Assembly: GCA_902523885.1 (NCBI GenBank)
Contig: CABZAV010000003.1
Location: 11,527-75,526 of the forward strand
DNA: 64,000 nt
Reading direction: 5' to 3'
Source: an uncultured SAR86 cluster bacterium
Lineage (GTDB): Bacteria > Pseudomonadota > Gammaproteobacteria > Magnimaribacterales > AG-339-G14
Below are positions 50,061 to 63,340 of this stretch, piece by piece. The first letter of the stretch is position 1, and every line of letters begins with the position of its first letter. Made by a program: the position numbers and the translations under genes. Below the pieces are notes generated by a model. The model saw nothing but the letters and a program-made list of their open reading frames with translations. It made no database searches and was not told where the DNA came from.

Positions 50061-50733
50061 AATTAGCCACTGCTTGAATTTCTTCTAAAGTAAGTCTGGC
50101 AGCTATTCCTTGCATTGATTTTCCCTTGGTATCGTGTCCTCTGTTGCCATTTTGATAAGCAATAAGAGAAGTAACTACGTATTCAGCCTTTTGACCACCC
50201 AACATTGGATATCCAGCAGACTCTATGCCTTTTCCTTTGGCACCGTGACAACCCGTACAAGCAGGAACGCCTGAATTTATATTTCCTGCCCTGTAAATTT
50301 TTTCCCCAAGCGCTAGATTTTCTTTATCCGCTTGTCCAACCTTCATTTGTTGTGCTGCATAGTAAGCCGCCATATCTCTTAGATCATCGTAATCATATGC
50401 ATCCAATAATCCCATCATCGAAGCAATCACCCTTTCGCCATCCTTTATGTGTTCAAGTTGATCGAACAGATAGCTTTCCCGTTGTCCTGCTAGAGTTGGC
50501 CACTGGCCAACCACACTATTGCCATCTACTCCGTGACAACCGGCACAAACCATAACTTTTCCCTCGCCAGCAATAGGGTCGCCTCTAAGAGGGGCTTTGG
50601 CTACTTTGCTTGCATCAGCTGCTGATGCTGCATGGAATAAGGGCGCTAGAAGTAAAATAAAAGCTGAAAAAATTAATTTTTTTATCATTTTTGTTCTATA
50701 TTGCGGGCTATGCGAGCGTGAATTATATACCAT
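50041..50733 (-). CDS. cc4: Dihaem cytochrome c4
   Basis: It has two haem motifs, 'CAGCHG' and 'CTGCHG'. The signal peptide 'MIKKLIFSAFILLLAPLFHAASA' suggests a probable start at 50688. The cc4-dsbA adjacency next to engB/polA matches Pseudomonas. Confidence 0.85.
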   Translation of the reverse strand: MVYNSRSHSPQYRTKMIKKLIFSAFILLLAPLFHAASAADASKVAKAPLRGDPIAGEGKVMVCAGCHGVDGNSVVGQWPTLAGQRESYLFDQLEHIKDGERVIASMMGLLDAYDYDDLRDMAAYYAAQQMKVGQADKENLALGEKIYRAGNINSGVPACTGCHGAKGKGIESAGYPMLGGQKAEYVVTSLIAYQNGNRGHDTKGKSMQGIAARLTLEEIQAVANYVSGLY

Positions 50734-54280: not shown

Positions 54281-54745
54281 ATGAGAATCGCCCTAACTTT
54301 GATATTGATTTTTTGTCTGGCCTTACTTGGTACGGCATATTATATGGAATATGCCTTGGGCTTAGAGCCCTGCCCGATGTGCATCATACAAAGAATCGCA
54401 GTTGCTTTAGCTGGCTTAGCAGCTCTCATTGGACTGATTCACAAACAATATCCAAAAGTTTATTTTGGACTCACCGCAGTTTTTAGTGCAGGTGGCGCCG
54501 CCTCTGCCACTAGACATTTATATTTGCAATCTTTACCAGCAGATCAAGTCCCAACTTGTGGGCCAGATCTTGCTTACTTAATTGATAAATCTTATTTTAC
54601 TGATGCTTTAAGCATGCTTTTCATTGGCGATGGTAATTGTGCCGAAGTAATGTGGAGTCTTTTGGGTATTTCTATTCCAGGGTGGGTGCTTATTTGTTGT
54701 GGGCTAGTAATAATCAGCTCTACTGTTGCATACGTTCGTAGCTAA
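54281..54745 (+). CDS. dsbB: Disulfide bond formation protein DsbB
   Basis: Four-TM pattern with 'EPCPMCIIQR' and a second Cys pair ('PTCGPD ... GNCAEV'). Confidence 0.85.
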   Translation: MRIALTLILIFCLALLGTAYYMEYALGLEPCPMCIIQRIAVALAGLAALIGLIHKQYPKVYFGLTAVFSAGGAASATRHLYLQSLPADQVPTCGPDLAYLIDKSYFTDALSMLFIGDGNCAEVMWSLLGISIPGWVLICCGLVIISSTVAYVRS

Positions 54746-54998
54746 CGTTGCCAAAATAATTTTTATCCATTTTTAAAATTTCATTTTTTTTAAAAAATAT
54801 ACGTACATAATATTTTCTAACGACCGAAACTATAGTTAAAACTAAAGTTTGTACAATCGATATGTATAACGCATTGACAATACCCATGGTTAACATCAAA
54901 GCCAAAGTTGTATAAGACAAAAACCAGGCTATTGGCATGGCAATGGCCGTGTCGGTCATGGATTCTTTTAAAGTTTTTCTATCAATTTTTTTCATCAT
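54720..54998 (-). CDS. Hypothetical small membrane protein (92 aa, two predicted TM helices)
   Basis: The hydrophobic segments are 'AIAMPIAWFLSYTTLALMLTMGIV' and 'ALYISIVQTLVLTIVSVV'. It is divergent from the WYL regulator gene, and its 3' end overlaps dsbB by 26 nt. Confidence 0.4.
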   Translation of the reverse strand: MMKKIDRKTLKESMTDTAIAMPIAWFLSYTTLALMLTMGIVNALYISIVQTLVLTIVSVVRKYYVRIFFKKNEILKMDKNYFGNVSYERMQQ

Positions 54999-55032
54999 AC
55001 TTTTGAAAAGGACAAAATTATATTCTCTTGAT

Positions 55033-55049
55033 GCGACAAATTTTGTCGC
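55033..55049. promoter_or_regulatory. Palindromic operator candidate, copy 1 (GCGACAAAtTTTGTCGC)
   Basis: This is a perfect 17-bp palindrome 40 bp upstream of the WYL regulator start. It lies between a -35-like TTGATG (55028-55033) and a -10-like TATAAA (55050-55055). The same core recurs at 61532 and 62988. Confidence 0.5.
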
Positions 55050-55088
55050 TATAAATGATATAATTAATCAGTTAATCGGGGCCTAAGT

Positions 55089-56090
55089 ATGAGTAATCCA
55101 ACTTTAAGACAAATTTCCATGTTGGAATTAATTCCACGGGCTCCTCTTAAAACTTATTCGAGAGAGCTTAAAGAAAAGCTCAGCGAACGCGGCTACGAAG
55201 TTGATGAAAGGACTATTCAGCGGGATCTCGTTTCTTTAGAGAGAGTTTTGCCATTGATTTGTGACGATCGAGATAAACCTTATGGTTGGTCCTGGGCTGA
55301 GACAGGTTTAGGAATTCAAGCGCCTGCCATGGATCCTGTTGAAGCTTTGACGTTGTCACTAGCAGAACAATACCTTGAACCTATAATGCCGAATGCAAGT
55401 TTTAAAAGGATCGGATATTTTTTTAAACGAGCTAATAGCGTCTTGAAGGAAACGAGTCCCAGATTAATTAGTCGTTGGCGCGATCGCGTAAGGGTATTGC
55501 CCGAGATGTTACGTTTTAAGAATCCAATTCTTAATAAATCTGCCGAACAAGCTTTATACAAAGCAACCTTTGAAGGGCTACAAATTAAAGCCCTTTATCG
55601 AAAGCGTGGAGATAATTATTCAAGCTTGAGGCACATTCATCCTCTGGGATTGGTCATGAAAGGCAGCATTAATTACTTAATTTGCATGATGAATGAAGAC
55701 AAAGAGAATCCTCGTTACTTGCCCCTTCACCGCTTTGAACGAGTAGAAATTCTTGATGAAAAAATATGCGAACCGAAAGATTTTGATTTAGATGAATTTA
55801 CCCATGTCAATAACTTAAGTTTTGAATATTCTAAGAAACTTTATACTTTCAAAGCTTTGTTTGACTTTACCGCAGCGGCTCATTTAATGGAAACTCCTCT
55901 TAATGGAACCCAAAAAATTAAAAAGCAGCCAGATGGAAGGTTATTGGTTTCTGCCAGAATGACCGATACGTTGCAATTCGAACAATGGCTAAAAGGATTT
56001 GGTTCAGACGTTGAGATTTTAGCTCCAATAGAACTTAGAGCTAAGTTCAAAAAACTAGCAAAAGACCTGATTAAAAAATATGATGACTAA
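55089..56090 (+). CDS. wHTH-WYL-domain transcriptional regulator (YafY/BrxR/CapW/PafBC-like architecture)
   Basis: The N-terminal wHTH reads 'RQISMLELIP...YSRELKEKLSERGYEVDERTIQRDLVSLE'. The central WYL-type segment reads 'IHPLGLVMKGSINYLICMMNEDKENPRYLPLHRFERVEIL'. The C-terminal extension reads 'FEQWLKGFGSDVEILAPIELR'. 333 aa. Confidence 0.8.
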   Translation: MSNPTLRQISMLELIPRAPLKTYSRELKEKLSERGYEVDERTIQRDLVSLERVLPLICDDRDKPYGWSWAETGLGIQAPAMDPVEALTLSLAEQYLEPIMPNASFKRIGYFFKRANSVLKETSPRLISRWRDRVRVLPEMLRFKNPILNKSAEQALYKATFEGLQIKALYRKRGDNYSSLRHIHPLGLVMKGSINYLICMMNEDKENPRYLPLHRFERVEILDEKICEPKDFDLDEFTHVNNLSFEYSKKLYTFKALFDFTAAAHLMETPLNGTQKIKKQPDGRLLVSARMTDTLQFEQWLKGFGSDVEILAPIELRAKFKKLAKDLIKKYDD

Positions 56091-56097
56091 AGAATAG

Positions 56098-56994
56098 ATG
56101 AGTAATTTCTTAGACCTTTTCATTGTTTTATTATTACTAGGAATTTTTGCCTTTCTGATCTTCCTTTTCTTTAAATTTAGGACTTCGGACGAAAGTTCTT
56201 ATCAATCAAATCAAAATTTTGAGGAAAAAATTGATCTGCTTTCGAATGAAATTTCAGAAATAGAAAGCAAGCTGATTTCGGTAACGACTCCGATTAATGA
56301 ACTCAATAGATTTTTAGGTGGCAACGTTTCAGCTGGTCGTTTGGGCGAATGGAATCTTGAGTCTGTTGTAAAAGACATCATGCCTGATGGTAGTTACGAA
56401 TTTCAAAAGATTATAAATCCGGAAACAACTGAACAAGTAGATTGTGCCGTTTATAGTGCCGACGGACTAATCATTCCAATTGACTCAAAACTTTATTCGG
56501 GACAATTTAAAAATTATCAGGCTACTTCAAAAAAAATCGAACAAGAAAAAATATTGAAAGGCCTCAAAACTGCCATTCTTAAAGATGCCGACGACATTGC
56601 CCAGAAATACATTCGACAAAATACAACCTCGAATTATGCCATTCTTTATATTGCTTCAGAAAAAATGAACGATCTGGTTGATATGATCGAAGATCTACGC
56701 CAAGAATGTCTTTCAGAAAAAAATGTTTTGATTCAAGGACCGAATACCATGGCAGCTTTTTTAGATACAGTTAAAATAGGACATCATTACTTAAATTTAA
56801 ATGAAACTGCTAGTAAGGTCGCTGAAGTGGTCAGAAAAATAAACAAACAATTCAAAGCTTTTGATGAAAGCACTGTCAATGTCAAAAAAAGATTGGAAGC
56901 TTCGGTGAAAGAAGTAGACGAATTACAAACTCGAATTAATGTGCTTGGTAGAGAATTGGACAGAGGAGCTGAAGAAATGGGGAGCGAAAAATAA
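56098..56994 (+). CDS. RmuC-family (PD-(D/E)xK fold) protein, short form with N-terminal TM helix
   Basis: It has the TM helix 'LFIVLLLLGIFAFLIFLFF', a short coiled coil and the RmuC-like core 'AGRLGEWNLESVV...YEFQ...VDCAVYSADGLIIPIDSKL...YAILYIASE...VLIQGPNTMAAFL'. This parallels E. coli RmuC 'RGNWGE.QLE..L......PD.....IDAK....F..MF.P.E...........SPTTL'. It starts 7 nt after the regulator stop. Confidence 0.7.
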   Translation: MSNFLDLFIVLLLLGIFAFLIFLFFKFRTSDESSYQSNQNFEEKIDLLSNEISEIESKLISVTTPINELNRFLGGNVSAGRLGEWNLESVVKDIMPDGSYEFQKIINPETTEQVDCAVYSADGLIIPIDSKLYSGQFKNYQATSKKIEQEKILKGLKTAILKDADDIAQKYIRQNTTSNYAILYIASEKMNDLVDMIEDLRQECLSEKNVLIQGPNTMAAFLDTVKIGHHYLNLNETASKVAEVVRKINKQFKAFDESTVNVKKRLEASVKEVDELQTRINVLGRELDRGAEEMGSEK

Positions 56995-57017: not shown

Positions 57018-58394
57018 TTACGTAAAAAAATTATTTTGAAAATTTAGAACTGATTTATCAAGTTTAATATCTTTTTCAGTAATTTTAGTTTTTAAATATA
57101 AATTTTTCATCTTTTTGCATCTACTCAAGGCAACGTATACCTGGCCATGACTAAATGCTCTTTTTCCATCGCCAATATCTATTGCGCAAGAATTCAGTGT
57201 AAGCCCTTGTGATTTATGAATTGTAACTGCCCAACCTAATCTTATCGGCAATTGAGAATATTCTGCTATTTTCTCTGTAGTTATTTCTTTAGTTTTCTCA
57301 TCAAATTTGTACCTTTCAAGTGTCCATGACTCTCTTTCAAGTTCAAATTCATCACCATCGATTGAAATGTTAATTGAATTATCATTTAGTTTCTTAATTT
57401 CAGCTAAAGTTCCATTTACCCACCTTTTTTCGGTATCATTTTTAGTAATCATGACTTGAGTGCCTACCTTAAGCTCAAGTTCTGAAGGAGCAGGCAAAGA
57501 ACTTTCTTTGTTAAATTTTGTGGGATCACCTTCAGTTGAAGCCTTATAAATTTTTGAATCTGACTCAATTAATTCTATTTTATTTTTATTGATTTCATCC
57601 GCAGTTGCGGTTCTAGCACAGAGATACATTTCGACTGATTCTGGTGGATTAGGCTCATAACAATGTTTGTTTAAAATCTCTACGGTCTCTTTAACATTTT
57701 TTCCAACCCTAATATTGGAAAGAATCTTTAAAAAATTTTCGTCCTCATTCTGTCTATATGATCTCTTAAGCTCTATTGCAATTGGCTTAGAATTTGAAAG
57801 CGACTTAGCACCAAAGAAAAAATGAGAACTATACTTTGAATATATTATCTCTCTATTTTCTTCTGTAGTTACTGGTTCGAGTTGGAACAAATCTCCACAC
57901 AGAAGAAGAGAGGCTCCACCAAAAGGCTTTTTTGAATTTTTGTGAATTTTTAAACTTTCTGATATTGCGTCAAGAGTTGGAGCGTTAACCATAGAAATTT
58001 CATCGATTATTAGCAAATCTATATTCTCAATAATGAGCCCATTAATGTTATTCATCTTATGAACTTTTGGTAATGGCGAAAAATCTAATCTAAAAAGGGA
58101 GTGAATTGTTGTGGCATTAATATTCCACGCTGCCATGCCGGTTGGTGCAACAGTAACTATAGACTTGTCAATTTTATTTCTTACTAGATTAATTAAACTA
58201 GACTTTCCAGTACCGGCAGCTCCCATCAAAAGAATAACCTTTTGGTTTTCCTTAGAAATACTTTCAAGTTCAGATAATAGTTTTCTTGACTCTAAGGTTT
58301 CTTCAAAAGAATATTTGGAGGGATTTTTTTTATTTACCTTTTTATTATTTAATTCTTTTGTAAAACTTCCAAAGGTGTTACTCATTTTTTTCAC
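57018..58394 (-). CDS. Pif1-family SF1B DNA helicase
   Basis: The SF1B motifs are I 'LLMGAAGTGKSS', Ia 'VAPTGMAAWNI', II 'LLIIDEISMV', III 'LLLCGDLFQLEPV', IV 'LKRSYRQ', V 'VMITKND...WVNG' and VI 'AVTIHKSQGLT', then 'YVALSR'. Confidence 0.85.
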   Translation of the reverse strand: MKKMSNTFGSFTKELNNKKVNKKNPSKYSFEETLESRKLLSELESISKENQKVILLMGAAGTGKSSLINLVRNKIDKSIVTVAPTGMAAWNINATTIHSLFRLDFSPLPKVHKMNNINGLIIENIDLLIIDEISMVNAPTLDAISESLKIHKNSKKPFGGASLLLCGDLFQLEPVTTEENREIIYSKYSSHFFFGAKSLSNSKPIAIELKRSYRQNEDENFLKILSNIRVGKNVKETVEILNKHCYEPNPPESVEMYLCARTATADEINKNKIELIESDSKIYKASTEGDPTKFNKESSLPAPSELELKVGTQVMITKNDTEKRWVNGTLAEIKKLNDNSINISIDGDEFELERESWTLERYKFDEKTKEITTEKIAEYSQLPIRLGWAVTIHKSQGLTLNSCAIDIGDGKRAFSHGQVYVALSRCKKMKNLYLKTKITEKDIKLDKSVLNFQNNFFT

Positions 58395-58500
58395 TAATCA
58401 TAATTTTATATTGCGATTATTGTTATTCTTTTGCAAGTTTCAATACCTTTTTATTAAAGAGATAAATAGATTTCTCTATTAAAAGTTGTTATAAAAATTT

Positions 58501-61089
58501 ATGGAACTAATTTTTTTTTTACTAATAATAGTAATAGCTATTTTTGTTTTTAAAAATAACAATTCATTTTCTTTACCTCAAGAAAGTTATAAAAAAACAG
58601 AACCTGAATATATAAAAATAGAAAAAAATAATTTAATAAGATACAAAGAATTTTTTGATAATCTTTTTGAGTATTCGCTCACTCAAGATCAAAGGAAATC
58701 AATAGTTTGTGATGCCGATAGATTGCTTTCAGTTGCTTCTGCTGGATCAGGTAAAACTTCAACCCTCGTAGGTAAGTTTGCTTATCTTGTGAAATCAAAA
58801 AAGGCTAAAGAAAGTGAGATTCTTATTCTCTCTTTTAATAGGTCAGTAAAAGAGGAATTAGAAAAAAGATTGAAACAACTTGGACATAATGATGCAAAAA
58901 TAGAAACATTTCACTCTTTGGGCAGAAAGATTTTAAAATCTGCTAACGAGCCATTTCAAATAGATAAAATGGCTCTTGGAGATGGAGATTCGTTTTTAAC
59001 CTCTTTTCAAGTTAGAAGTCTTATATCAAAAGCAGAAATTAAAAGCCCTTCCATTAGATTCAAGATCGCAGAATTTACTGCTCTTACCCAATACCATTTG
59101 ATTGAAAACTTTGCAGAAGATCAAAATGAATATAATGAAGCGATATCAAGTTATCCATATAAAAGAAATAAATTTAAGTTTAATGATGAATTTAGGCCTT
59201 TGAAAATTCCAGCGCTTGATGGAAAAACTTGGGTGAGATCTCAACAAGAATTATTTATAGCAAATTTACTTGTTCTCAATGGAATAAATTTTAAATATGA
59301 AGCGCCTTTAAGTATTGGGGAGAATGATTCTATAAATCCAGATTTTTATTATCCCGATATAGATCTATGGCACGAGCATTATGCGATAGATGAGAGAGGA
59401 AAATCACCTTTTGGTGAAAAATATGAAGAAAATCATAAGTTGAAAGAAGAATTTTATAAAAGGTCGTCTATAGAAGTATTTTCAACAAATTTAAAGGATT
59501 ATTCAAGTGGAGAAATTGAGCATAAAATCTTTTCTGAATTAGAATCAAATGGATTGCAGAAAAATCCTCTATCTTTATTAGATATTGAATTTAAGTTGAG
59601 TGAAATATACACAGATTCCACTTATAGTTTAATTGCAAATTTAATAGGACTTCACAAAGAAAATAATTCATCAATATCCGAAACACTTTCTAAATTAGAC
59701 TCTTTGCATGACCAAACAAGAGCACAAAAGTTTAAAGAGATTTTTTTTCCTTTGCTTGATGCCTACCAAGAAATATTAGCAAGTAATAGAACTATTGATT
59801 TTTCAGACATGATGACAAAAGCTAATAAAATTATAGAGGGTAATAACAAAAATAATTCAGATCAGACTTCTATTCAAAACTTTAAGTATATTTTGGTAGA
59901 TGAATTTCAAGATATTTCAAAATCTAGGGAAAAGTTAATTAAAAGTATTTTATCATGTAATAAAGAGTCAAAATTGTTTGGTGTAGGTGATGATTGGCAA
60001 TCAATTTATAGATTCACTGGATCTGATATTTCTATAATGACCGATTTTAAAAATCGGTTTAATTTTAAAAAAGATAAAGTCGAAGGAGATTCAAATCAAC
60101 CTCTCTTTGAAATAAAAGAAAGGATTGAGGTAAAGAATATATCTGAAACGCATAGATTTCCAGATTCTATCGTAAAACTTTCTTCGGAGTTTATTCAAAA
60201 AAATCCAAATCAGCTTAAAAAAGAAATAAAAACAGATAAGAAAGGAGGAAGAATTTTTCTATGCAAAATAGAAAAATATAAAACTCAGGATTTAAAGAAT
60301 ATCCTTGATCATATTTCATCGGGAAAAAAAGTTTTTTTGCTCGCAAGAAAAAATCAAGACATAGATAATATTGATTTTGAAGAATTGAAACTTTATAGAC
60401 CTGACTTAGATATAAAATTTTCATCCATTCACAGAGTAAAAGGATCTGAGCGAGATGTAATAATAATTTTAGGAATGGACGGCGGTATGTTTGGCTTCCC
60501 TAGAATTTTTTCTGAAGATCCTTTAATTAGCATATATTTGCCTAAAGAAGACGAATTCAGAGATGCTGAGGAGAGGAGAGTTCTATACGTAGCCATGACA
60601 AGAGGCAGGGAAGACATTTTTTTAGTTTCTGCGCCTGGAAAAGATTATGTATTTTATAACGAACCTTCGGTATTTTATGATGAAATCAAAAGAATCTGTG
60701 AACAAGAGTTTCTGCCTGAAAATAATAAAATTTTTAATGAGTTAGATTTTACAGAGAGTATTCCTTGTAAAGTTTGTGCTAATAAAAAAATTAATCAGAA
60801 AATGAGAATAAAAACTGTCCGTAATACTAAAAAAAATATTGAAAGTGGAATTTTTCCTGGGGTTTTTATGGGTTGTTCAGGATTTTCAAAGAATATAAAA
60901 AGTCCGACTTTCTGCAATCATTCAGAAAGGAAAGCAATATGTATAAATTGTTATTCAAAAGATAAAAAAAATTTATCAGAACTTGAGGTAATTGAAGAAG
61001 ACGAAAATGGAAGAAAAAAATATTTTGTTTTTTGTAGTAATTGTAATTTTAAGAAAGATTATTTTTATTATCAGAAAATTTCAGAATAA
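58501..61089 (+). CDS. UvrD/HelD-like SF1A helicase with N-terminal TM helix, inserted Vsr/PD-(D/E)xK-like module and C-terminal zinc ribbons
   Basis: The TM helix is 'MELIFFLLIIVIAIFVF'. The helicase motifs are 'VASAGSGKTST', 'ETFHSLG', 'ILVDEFQDIS', 'GVGDDWQSIYRFTGSD', 'ETHRF', 'SSIHRVKGSERDVIIILG' and 'EERRVLYVAMTRGRE'. The insertion is 'SQQELFIANLLVLNGINFKYEAPL......INPDFYYPDIDLWHEHYAID' (nt 59230-59400). The C-terminus carries 'CKVC...FMGCSGFSKNIKSPTFCNH' and 'CINC...FCSNCNF' (nt 60766-61060). Confidence 0.8.
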   Translation: MELIFFLLIIVIAIFVFKNNNSFSLPQESYKKTEPEYIKIEKNNLIRYKEFFDNLFEYSLTQDQRKSIVCDADRLLSVASAGSGKTSTLVGKFAYLVKSKKAKESEILILSFNRSVKEELEKRLKQLGHNDAKIETFHSLGRKILKSANEPFQIDKMALGDGDSFLTSFQVRSLISKAEIKSPSIRFKIAEFTALTQYHLIENFAEDQNEYNEAISSYPYKRNKFKFNDEFRPLKIPALDGKTWVRSQQELFIANLLVLNGINFKYEAPLSIGENDSINPDFYYPDIDLWHEHYAIDERGKSPFGEKYEENHKLKEEFYKRSSIEVFSTNLKDYSSGEIEHKIFSELESNGLQKNPLSLLDIEFKLSEIYTDSTYSLIANLIGLHKENNSSISETLSKLDSLHDQTRAQKFKEIFFPLLDAYQEILASNRTIDFSDMMTKANKIIEGNNKNNSDQTSIQNFKYILVDEFQDISKSREKLIKSILSCNKESKLFGVGDDWQSIYRFTGSDISIMTDFKNRFNFKKDKVEGDSNQPLFEIKERIEVKNISETHRFPDSIVKLSSEFIQKNPNQLKKEIKTDKKGGRIFLCKIEKYKTQDLKNILDHISSGKKVFLLARKNQDIDNIDFEELKLYRPDLDIKFSSIHRVKGSERDVIIILGMDGGMFGFPRIFSEDPLISIYLPKEDEFRDAEERRVLYVAMTRGREDIFLVSAPGKDYVFYNEPSVFYDEIKRICEQEFLPENNKIFNELDFTESIPCKVCANKKINQKMRIKTVRNTKKNIESGIFPGVFMGCSGFSKNIKSPTFCNHSERKAICINCYSKDKKNLSELEVIEEDENGRKKYFVFCSNCNFKKDYFYYQKISE

Positions 61090-61427
61090 TCAGCAAAAAA
61101 ACTTAAAATGAAATTAGTAAAAGGCAATCCAAGAAATATAAGACTCAAAAAACCTATTAACAATATCAAAATGCTTTGTAACGTATCCGCGTACATCATA
61201 ACGAGAGTCATTATTGCTGAGCTCGCTAGTATTTGAGGAACAATGGAGTTCATTAAAGAAAAATCCATTTGTTCTGGAATATTTATATTATGACTTGTTT
61301 CAGTTAATGTTGGCTTAACACTATTACTGTATAGCTTTTGTAGAGGAAAAGTAGCTGCATAAGCAGTAGATGCGGTTATGAGCTTTAAACCCGTTTTTAA
61401 AAACTTTCTTCTTTCTGCGTCTATCAT
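61071..61427 (-). CDS. Hypothetical small membrane protein with twin-arginine (Tat) signal-like N-terminus
   Basis: 'MIDAERRKFLKTGLKLITASTAYAA' fits S/T-RRxFLK plus an h-region. Hydrophobic segments lie in the C-terminal half. It overlaps the helicase 3' end convergently by 19 nt. Confidence 0.4.
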   Translation of the reverse strand: MIDAERRKFLKTGLKLITASTAYAATFPLQKLYSNSVKPTLTETSHNINIPEQMDFSLMNSIVPQILASSAIMTLVMMYADTLQSILILLIGFLSLIFLGLPFTNFILSFFADYSEIF

Positions 61428-61531
61428 TTTTTAAGCTTTCTAAGGTTATTATCTTTAAGGCCCTTTAGTAAGGAGTATAAAACTAAAAGGCCTTTAGGAG
61501 AAAATATGAAAAACAACTTTAAAATAAAGAT

Positions 61532-61548
61532 GCGACAAATATTGTCGG
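61532..61548. promoter_or_regulatory. Palindromic operator candidate, copy 2 (GCGACAAataTTGTCGG)
   Basis: It has 6-bp perfect arms CGACAA/TTGTCG with a 3-nt centre. It lies in the gap between the 61554 gene stop and the 61427 gene start, and shares 'gatgcgacaaat' with copy 1. Confidence 0.45.
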
Positions 61549-62987: not shown

Positions 62988-63004
62988 ACGACAAGCTTTG
63001 TCGT
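62988..63004. promoter_or_regulatory. Palindromic operator candidate, copy 3 (ACGACAAgctTTGTCGT)
   Basis: It has 7-bp perfect arms with a 3-nt centre. It lies in the divergent intergenic region between the 62876(-) and 63038(+) genes, 8 nt upstream of a TATAAA (63013-63018). Confidence 0.45.
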
Positions 63005-63037: not shown

Positions 63038-63340
63038 ATGAATAATCCTGAAATAGACAAAAAATTAAGTGGCGCGATAGATGAAGTGATTTCAATTTAT
63101 TTAGAATCAACCGATGTTGAGGTTATCGATCTTTTTAGGAGTTTAACGAGGCATGTCATATCATTAAATTACCAATATGCCTCTAATTATCGCTCTGCGA
63201 CTGCCATGATTGCACAATGTCTCAATGACGTTATGTGCGACCTACAAGAGCAAAAGATCTTTAATGACGAGTTCAAAGACAACTTAAAGAAAGGCAAAGT
63301 TACATCTGTTTTGGAAGATCATTTAAAAAAGAAGCACTAA
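63038..63340 (+). CDS. Hypothetical protein (100 aa)
   Basis: ORF with the SD-like 'ggagaaaag' just upstream of the ATG. I recognise no family. Confidence 0.4.
   Translation: MNNPEIDKKLSGAIDEVISIYLESTDVEVIDLFRSLTRHVISLNYQYASNYRSATAMIAQCLNDVMCDLQEQKIFNDEFKDNLKKGKVTSVLEDHLKKKH

Follow-up and report, generated by a model that had tools for sequence, protein, structure and literature searches.

The WYL-RmuC locus

The stretch of DNA analysed here, called the window, covers 64,000 nucleotides (nt) from an uncultured SAR86 cluster bacterium, a gammaproteobacterium of the SAR86 clade (GCA_902523885.1, contig CABZAV010000003.1, positions 11,527-75,526, forward strand). Its + strand carries a gene (55089..56090, ATG at 55089) coding for a 333-amino acid regulator of the WYL family, composed of one domain of winged helix-turn-helix type (wHTH), a helical linker with three predicted helices, and WYL and WCX domains (Pfam, 5e-10 and 3.4e-15, respectively). 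The following gene of the same strand (56098..56994) starts 7 nt past the regulator stop codon and is probably co-transcribed with it. It encodes a 298-amino acid RmuC-family nuclease (Pfam RmuC, 5e-40) with an N-terminal hydrophobic helix. In the opposite direction, a divergent gene on the - strand (54720..54998, start at 54998) codes for a hydrophobic 92-amino acid protein of the DUF7220 family (Pfam, 3.6e-9). Between the two divergent starts lies a palindrome of 17 base pairs (bp), box 1 (55033..55049), which reads GCGACAAA-T-TTTGTCGC (in full GCGACAAATTTTGTCGC), with perfect 8-nt arms and one unpaired central T. Its core, CGACAAATTTTGTCG (55034-55048), has the form CGACA-N5-TGTCG. We privilege, with a confidence somewhat above even, the reading that box 1 is a box of the type used by the activators DriD and DdaA, at which a regulator dimer triggered by single-stranded DNA (ssDNA) would activate both the WYL-RmuC operon and the divergent DUF7220 gene.

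Homologues of the regulator are found by the hundreds in marine metagenomes, with 56-97% identity, and all related genome loci (14/14) come from SAR86 single-amplified genomes or metagenome-assembled genomes. The gene order polA, dsbB, (DUF7220), then the divergent WYL and RmuC genes, is kept across SAR86. A same-strand RmuC homologue is present directly 3' of the regulator in 34 of 67 non-redundant loci and in 11 of the 14 genome loci, and a divergent DUF7220 homologue in 17 of the 67. The list of open reading frames (ORFs) shows no paralogue adjacent to the regulator, which is encoded by a single gene.

Recurrence and conservation of the box

Perfect palindromes with 8-bp arms and a loop of 0-1 nt number 11 in the window versus 3.5 in composition-preserving shuffles. 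Two GC-rich ones, GTTGGCCACTGGCCAAC and GCATCAGCTGCTGATGC (50495-50511 and 50612-50628), belong to this excess; some 120 nt separate them, and both lie within or close to overlapping ORFs. Box 1 stands beyond chance through its recurrence and conservation, not through its size. The window contains three exact copies of CGACA-N5-TGTCG (55034-48, 61533-61547 and 62989-63003); with at most one mismatch there are 4 matches against 0.30 expected, and none of 100 shuffles gave four. An earlier reading of the same DNA from its letters alone (hereafter the sequence-only reading) had announced such further copies, and had taken the palindrome for a regulatory site of the adjacent WYL regulator. Both proposals are supported.

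The box is found upstream of the WYL gene or operon in all 14 SAR86 genome loci. Together with 12 loci of the closest relatives and 80 metagenomic loci, reaching down to 44% protein identity, the genome loci make up 84 non-redundant loci, and 75 of these (44-91% identity) have CG[AT]CA-N5-TG[AT]CG in the 500 nt that precede the WYL gene. No recognisable box is present in these 500 nt at the other nine (L035, L047, L049, L054, L056, L057, L061, L064 and similar; L numbers designate collected loci), where either the box is further off or more degenerate, or autoregulation has been lost. Only the pentamers CGACA and TGTCG are conserved across orthologues, the five central bases being variable and mostly A/T, which amounts to 5-6 conserved bp per arm around a 5-nt centre. 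Box 1 is the predicted, and almost certain, binding site of a dimer of the adjacent WYL regulator.

That the palindrome would act as an RNA or DNA hairpin, such as a terminator or a recombination site, or be a chance palindrome without function, is scarcely credible. Palindromes of this kind are common in the window, as counted above, but box 1 lies between two diverging genes, at no 3' end, and is followed by no T-run. The centre varies without compensation while the pentamers alone are conserved, a pattern of a protein site and not of a stem, and the statistics of recurrence and conservation contradict chance. A terminator or hairpin role was rejected on the position of the palindrome and on the lack of covariation in its arms.

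Two predicted back-to-back promoters

On the WYL side of the box, the + strand carries the extended -10 element TGATATAAT (55056..55064), whose hexamer TATAAT (55059-55064) starts 10 nt after TGTCG and which is assigned to the promoter of the WYL-RmuC operon. It is the sole TGnTATAAT of the window (both strands, 128 kb), and the motif is kept in the closest relatives L016, L020, L024 and L028. The predicted transcription start, at about 55070-55072, leaves a leader of some 18 nt that includes GGGG (55078-81). On the - strand, a TATAAT hexamer (55022-55017) starts 11 nt after the mirror TGTCG half-site; it would serve the DUF7220 gene, with a predicted transcription start at about 55010.

This spacing recurs. 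The window and the genome loci together provide 44 half-sites, of which 33 have TAnnnT at offset 11 or 12 from TGTCG, that is 10-11 nt outside (10 cases at offset 11 and 23 at offset 12), for a background of about 4%. In the larger set, TAnnnT is found at these offsets on the WYL side in 69/75 loci, on the far side in 51/75 and on both sides in 47/75. The distance from the box to the -10 varies by no more than 1 nt in 69 of the 75 loci, and the signal extends over proteins of 44-91% identity. A further proposal of the sequence-only reading, namely that the palindrome also serves the divergent 92-amino acid gene, is likewise supported.

The start codon of the WYL gene lies 22-27 nt past the box, and 6-8 nt past the -10, in 32/75 loci. 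This implies leaderless mRNAs that start at the ATG, and such start codons fix the position of the -10 independently. An ATG 22-27 nt after TGTCG is seen in about half of the box-linked genes, including several small ORFs of 61-98 amino acids; these short-spaced ATGs are found in L002, L005-L014, L016 and many of L028-L107 (e.g., L006:7760-7800), not in the window copy. Leaderless mRNAs are unusual for a gammaproteobacterium.

The centre of box 1 (55041) falls at about -30 of the + promoter and at about -31 of the - promoter. The palindrome spans about -38 to -22 of the former, overlapping the -35 position. A -35 element at a spacing of 16-18 nt would have to run across the fixed CGACA pentamer, which leaves these promoters without a -35. 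Judged by its position, the box occupies the -35 place of two back-to-back promoters. The TG extension of the + promoter suggests some basal, activator-independent expression of the regulator.

The sequence-only reading had set the promoter elsewhere. It proposed a sigma70-type promoter on the + strand (55028..55055), with TTGATG (55028-33) and TATAAA (55050-55) separated by 16 nt and a start near 55062, in which the palindrome would be a spacer operator for steric autorepression. All the elements it named are in place: both hexamers, the palindrome, the TATAAT at 55059-64 and the gene starts at 55089 and 54998. The palindrome does lie inside the core promoter region of the WYL gene. With this 16-nt spacer, the hexamers match the consensus at 4/6 and 5/6 positions, TTGAnn-16 nt-TATAAn occurs only once in the window, and TATAAA is kept in the closest relative L028 (91% protein identity). 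However, TATAAA has no T at hexamer position 6, which is near-invariant, and for this reason a promoter scan did not list the pair. Matches at 9 of 12 positions are at chance frequency, 18 in 4.4 kb versus 16.4 +/- 3.6 in shuffles. Already L028 (TTACTG) and every relative at 84-86% identity no longer have the -35, and the two hexamers are not conserved even in relatives at 84-91% protein identity. Over the whole set, TTG is present in 3/75 loci, at least four of six matches to TTGACA in 4/75 and TATAAn in 3/75, the conserved element being the downstream TATAAT. Leaderless starts 6-8 nt past TATAAT also misfit a -10 that abuts the box. The pair TTGATG/TATAAA is therefore present in the sequence but is probably not a functional promoter, and we hold the spacer-operator model to be very improbable. 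The sequence-only reading had itself named as its counter-case a start from the TATAAT at 55059-64 with the palindrome upstream of the -35. The first half of this alternative is the one favoured by sequence, the TATAAT being the conserved -10, whereas the second half does not hold, as the palindrome overlaps the -35 position instead of preceding it.

The regulator protein

A narrow profile made from SAR86 relatives of the regulator hits DriD (6e-9) as the sole WYL-family match in the PDB at E <= 1. The other matches are weak ones to the wHTH of arginine repressors (E 0.04-0.24). The profile of the wider family (30-47% identity; 998 cluster representatives at E <= 1e-30) gives strong hits to DriD (4e-19 to 2e-18) and PafBC (7e-14 to 2e-8), versus E-values of 0.06-0.13 for BrxR and 0.18-0.26 for CapW. 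Few cluster members are named for this family, from SAR324 and Oleiphilus, with no Acinetobacter among the names listed. Foldseek with an AlphaFold2 model, used for ranking and secondary structure only, likewise places DriD (3e-15) and PafBC (1e-11) first, followed by CapW (2e-8) and BrxR (3e-7). By these scores the regulator is closer to the activators DriD and PafBC than to BrxR and CapW. The sequence-only reading had framed the locus by analogy with the latter two, and this autorepression frame, like the promoter hexamers that went with it, is probably wrong.

The secondary structure of the model has the wHTH at residues 4-69 and linker helices at 83-96, 106-119 and 124-133, with low predicted local distance difference test (pLDDT) values, followed by the beta/alpha domains WYL and WCX. 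The predicted recognition helix (40-51) contains the sequence R41-T-I-Q-R45. R45 is invariant, R41 never varies within SAR86 and shows a conservation of 90% or more in the wider family, and the position of Q44 is occupied by E in distant family members. Two tyrosines of the WYL domain, Y170, invariant throughout the wider family, and Y196, invariant within SAR86 only, align, in the family profile alignment only, with the tyrosines of the DriD sequences 'RYEGG' and 'NYL'. Their spacing matches that of Y173/Y200 in DdaA. The N-terminal 98 residues alone gave chance-level matches in the PDB together with the generic ArgR wHTH, and no alignment to DriD. NCBIfam and PADLOC gave no equivalog or system-level name for the regulator or its small neighbours.

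Comparison with known WYL systems

DriD of Caulobacter crescentus recognises the box ATACGAC(N7)GTCGTAT (PMC9186387, PMC10853764, PMC13004042). Its structures determined by cryo-electron microscopy (cryo-EM) show a site lying across the -35 position, with its distance to the -10 fixed, in promoters without -35 (PMC13004042). One DriD site lies in the bidirectional promoter that driD shares with a divergent, uncharacterised operon (PMC13004042), and 68/69 DriD homologues of alphaproteobacteria have the box in their own bidirectional promoter (PMC10853764). The SAR86 regulator resembles DriD, its best PDB match by profile and by Foldseek, in the succession of a homodimer-type wHTH, a three-helix linker, WYL and WCX over about 330 amino acids. 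The SAR86 box likewise has half-sites CGAC/GTCG around a 7-nt AT-rich centre, and is placed in a bidirectional promoter shared by the regulator gene and an uncharacterised operon that diverges from it. The -10 starts 11 nt after GTCG, with no -35; this distance equals that of the DriD promoter oligonucleotide labelled 'didA'. DriD reads two half-site guanines with R37-T38-x-E40-R41 (PMC10853764), and a recognition pattern R-T-x-E/Q-R is common to both proteins. The two proteins differ by their sequence identity of about 18-22%. In Caulobacter the geometry is correct for the divergent operon only and driD is not induced, whereas in SAR86 it is correct on both sides in the 47 loci mentioned above. 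The DriD regulon comprises didA, bapE, recJ and dnaG, in contrast to the small uncharacterised proteins, RmuC and RecB-like nuclease-helicase linked to SAR86 boxes, and many SAR86 targets look leaderless.

DdaA of Acinetobacter (ACIAD2439) activates repair and defence genes and binds CGWCA-N5-TGWCG, e.g., CGACAATATGTGTCG at aciT (PMC12392091, PMC13010146). Two arginines four residues apart, R47/R51, are essential, and the tyrosines Y173/Y200 are found in its WYL domain (PMC13010146). Basal DdaA clades are reported to be self-regulated local regulators of neighbouring uncharacterised genes (PMC12392091, PMC13010146). This activator of Moraxellaceae is thus gammaproteobacterial like the SAR86 protein, its box has exactly the form of the SAR86 core, its arginines have the spacing of R41/R45, and its WYL domain has two tyrosines. 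The local self-regulation of the basal clades is what the SAR86 locus shows. DdaA differs in that its box is reported some 50 bp upstream of the start site and ddaA lacks autoregulation, the SAR86 box being at about -30 in the regulator's own promoter. The features of the DriD/DdaA type found in SAR86 are the domain architecture, a closer relationship to DriD than to other WYL classes, a cognate box, paired arginines and the box/-10 geometry without -35.

The mycobacterial PafBC, the second-best PDB match, responds to ssDNA and works by sigma adaptation at a -26 element of consensus tGTCgg(N10)tA(N3)T, where R46/R50 of PafB read the guanines of GTC (PMC8635444). It shares with SAR86 the promoter grammar of TGTCG, 11 nt, TAnnnT and no -35, as well as the two arginines of the recognition pattern. 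PafBC is, however, a heterodimer of two paralogues, or a fusion, acting on a single non-palindromic half-site, whereas SAR86 has one gene and a symmetric box with two half-sites that can serve both directions. We did not assign the regulator to PafBC in view of its single gene and symmetric box; only the geometry between half-site and -10 is shared.

BrxR and CapW are also dimers of wHTH-WYL-WCX proteins with ssDNA as ligand and a palindrome in the bidirectional promoter beside their own gene, and they release DNA on binding ssDNA (PMC11662680). BrxR operators, inverted repeats of 10-11 bp around a 5-bp spacer, are found downstream of the -10 (PMC9122601). The Shield II system of Pseudomonas is repressed by a BrxR homologue encoded upstream of the RmuC-domain protein ShdA (PMC10270631), and the membrane-anchored RmuC-domain gene downstream of the SAR86 regulator recalls shdA. 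These proteins are shorter (about 290 amino acids), far from the SAR86 regulator in sequence, and belong to mobile defence islands, whereas the SAR86 locus has core synteny beside polA and dsbB. Assignment to BrxR/CapW was rejected on the arms of 5-6 bp, the location of the site ahead of the conserved -10, the absence of any PADLOC system, the weak profile E-values and the Foldseek rank below DriD and PafBC. The part of this comparison that concerns defence islands has to be read with the variable downstream cargo (a methylase in L020-23) and with the RmuC pairing, which recalls Shield.

Activation or repression at the box

Homology and promoter grammar lead us to infer binding of the box by the regulator, ssDNA as its signal and activation as the effect. 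On the model of DriD, DdaA and PafBC, ssDNA arising from DNA damage, or possibly from phage or foreign DNA, would be bound by the WYL domains of the regulator. This would free the wHTH domains to bind the box, and a homodimer would contact it via the two arginines of each recognition helix. Standing at the -35 position, the regulator would help the housekeeping holoenzyme of RNA polymerase to start at both back-to-back promoters, and the same activation may take place at boxes 2 and 3 (see below). A fixed spacing between box and -10 and a missing -35 are marks of WYL activators, and for that reason an activator site is more likely here than an operator for steric autorepression.

Several points weigh against this reading. 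The extended -10 of the + promoter, in the window and in the closest relatives, can fire without a -35 or an activator, and thus a protein sitting at -30 might just as well act as a repressor. Neither in Caulobacter (PMC13004042) nor in Acinetobacter (PMC12392091) is the gene of the regulator itself induced. A WYL gene followed by a gene for a membrane-anchored RmuC-domain protein resembles the BrxR-Shield arrangement of Pseudomonas, where the WYL protein represses (PMC10270631). The AlphaFold2 model is mediocre (pLDDT 71.7, predicted template modelling score 0.36), with all TM-scores about 0.3, lowered by a poor domain arrangement. The arginine match to DriD rests on pattern and helix position, not on a residue-level alignment, and likewise the match of the arginines and Y196 to DdaA on spacing and sequence pattern, not on direct alignment. 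The orthologous loci are not statistically independent, and P values are thus overstated.

In an alternative, the same conserved TATAAT promoters are used and the WYL protein is a repressor sitting on both -35 regions in unstressed cells. It would leave on binding ssDNA, in the style of CapW and BrxR, de-repressing WYL-RmuC as a Shield-like nuclease defence module. The TGnTATAAT promoter of the window and its closest relatives could be active unaided, and sigma region 4 would be blocked by a protein covering -38 to -22. The ssDNA signal is common to WYL repressors (PMC11662680), and the precedents of Shield II repression (PMC10270631) and of driD and ddaA, not self-induced in the model organisms, fit this scheme, as do the variable genes 3' of the regulator, which include a C5 DNA methylase in close relatives. 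Against this stand the box, which equals that of activators, and the family profile, which barely detects BrxR/CapW (E 0.06-0.26) next to DriD at 4e-19. Most of the orthologous promoters have neither a -35 nor the TG extension, so that they would be very weak even if de-repressed. A box-to-(-10) distance fixed within 1 nt in 69/75 loci is a precision that contact with polymerase needs and occlusion does not. BrxR operators have longer arms (10-11 bp) and a position downstream of the -10, no known defence system is recognised by PADLOC, and the locus is syntenic core genome near polA and dsbB. We consider this repressor scheme unlikely, and keep the DriD/DdaA-type activator box as the preferred reading.

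A bolder extension of the activator reading is tentative, and we rate it clearly below even. One symmetric DriD-type box would replace the -35 of two promoters, the direction being chosen at each firing, with many transcripts leaderless. Such a choice would be needed because the assembly of activator and polymerase is asymmetric in the DriD cryo-EM structures. The regulator might then be the main ssDNA/DNA-damage switch of SAR86, controlling a membrane-anchored RmuC and small proteins (DUF7220 and those of 61-69, 100 and 118 amino acids, one of them with a Tat signal), among which one could be a new division inhibitor.

Neighbouring genes and variable cargo

The convergent 3' ends of dsbB (+ strand) and of the DUF7220 gene (- strand) overlap by 26 nt (54720-54745), and the same overlap is seen in relatives such as L024 and L025. 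The cargo 3' of the regulator differs among the close relatives L016-L027. It is RmuC in the window, a gene of 112 or 125 codons plus RmuC in L016 and L024, and a C5 DNA methylase (PF00145) plus a 283-codon gene in L020-L023. The regulator operon resembles a small slot for changing cargo, which may consist of defence genes. The short RmuC protein with its hydrophobic helix resembles ShdA, the membrane-bound RmuC-domain effector of Pseudomonas Shield, which often has a WYL regulator of BrxR type upstream. In PADLOC it has a weak match to a DRT-associated RmuC (E 8e-5). PADLOC calls no defence system at the locus, where it gives generic WYL, helicase and weak RmuC matches only.

Just past the WYL-RmuC operon, a Pif1/RecD-like helicase is encoded on the - strand (57018-58394), divergent from a helicase IV/UvrD-like protein of 862 amino acids (58501-61089, + strand) whose N-terminus looks hydrophobic. 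The helicase gives strong matches to the GajB family in PADLOC; no GajA partner was seen. The region between the two genes (58395-58500) contains no box, even with W positions or one mismatch, and neither gene was assigned to the regulon of the WYL protein for want of a box in this shared intergenic region.

Other lineages carry additional small genes at the regulator locus. A conserved ORF of 65-69 codons, whose product begins for example with MSKDENKKIMNEILTDGRIIKEGFTG, separates the box from the WYL gene, with which it shares an operon, in L006-L009, L011, L013, L014 and L016. This corresponds to SAR86 lineages of 55-60% identity, plus L016 (about 85%). A conserved divergent ORF of 61-62 codons is present in most of the lineages of 55-60% identity.

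Boxes 2 and 3 and a candidate regulon

Box 2, CGACAAATATTGTCG (61533..61547), is followed at 11 nt by a -10-like TAAAGT on the - strand (61521-61516). A gene of the same strand (61071-61427), coding for a 118-amino acid protein with a signal of twin-arginine translocation (Tat) type, would be driven from box 2 via a leader of about 85 nt. Homologues of this protein are found in box-driven operons of L007, L010 and L014. The leader contains a 13-bp hairpin in the - strand RNA (61457-61494), and the whole 91-nt leader has a folding energy of -20.3 kcal/mol (z -3.3 versus shuffles). Possible roles of the hairpin are those of attenuator, of processing site, or of terminator for upstream convergent genes.

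Box 3, CGACAAGCTTTGTCG (62989..63003), is followed on the + strand by a -10-like TATAAA (63013-18) overlapping a TAAAGT (63015-20), from which a 100-codon gene (63038-63340, + strand) would be driven. The pairing of a box with this small gene recurs in L010 at 16509, where the protein has 32% identity (BLASTP) to the 100-amino acid protein, and a similarly placed ORF of 102 codons follows the box of L004 at 12557. In other SAR86 lineages, boxes stand ahead of operons encoding proteins of 66, 187 and 97 amino acids and Tat-signal proteins, and in L013/L014 a box is linked to a TM0106-type RecB-like nuclease fused to a helicase. Box-linked genes thus encode the RmuC-family nuclease, the RecB-like nuclease-helicase, DUF7220 and several small uncharacterised proteins. 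Searches of the window and the collected loci by tblastn with approximate query sequences of Escherichia coli LexA and RecA gave no match. The gammaproteobacterial SOS box CTGT-N8-ACAG is found 0 times in the window against 0.57 expected, an expectation too low to be informative.

Significance

Box 1 is best reread as a DNA-damage activator box of the DriD/DdaA type rather than as the operator of a generic autorepressed defence regulator. The comparative evidence makes it fairly probable that the locus is a SAR86-wide addition to the DriD/DdaA/PafBC kind of ssDNA-responsive activators, a kind that is itself already known. The grammar of TGTCG, 11 nt, -10 and no -35 is now found in Actinobacteria, Alphaproteobacteria and SAR86, where the two-sided use of the box and the frequent leaderless targets would be modest variations on the DriD mechanism. 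SAR86 bacteria are mostly uncultured inhabitants of sunlit surface water and count among the most abundant streamlined marine heterotrophs. The signature CGACA-N5-TGTCG, 10-11 nt, TAnnnT is searchable, and genomes and metatranscriptomes can be scanned with it to define their damage-response regulon. A few conserved uncharacterised small proteins and the RmuC nuclease already emerge from it as candidates for induction by DNA damage.

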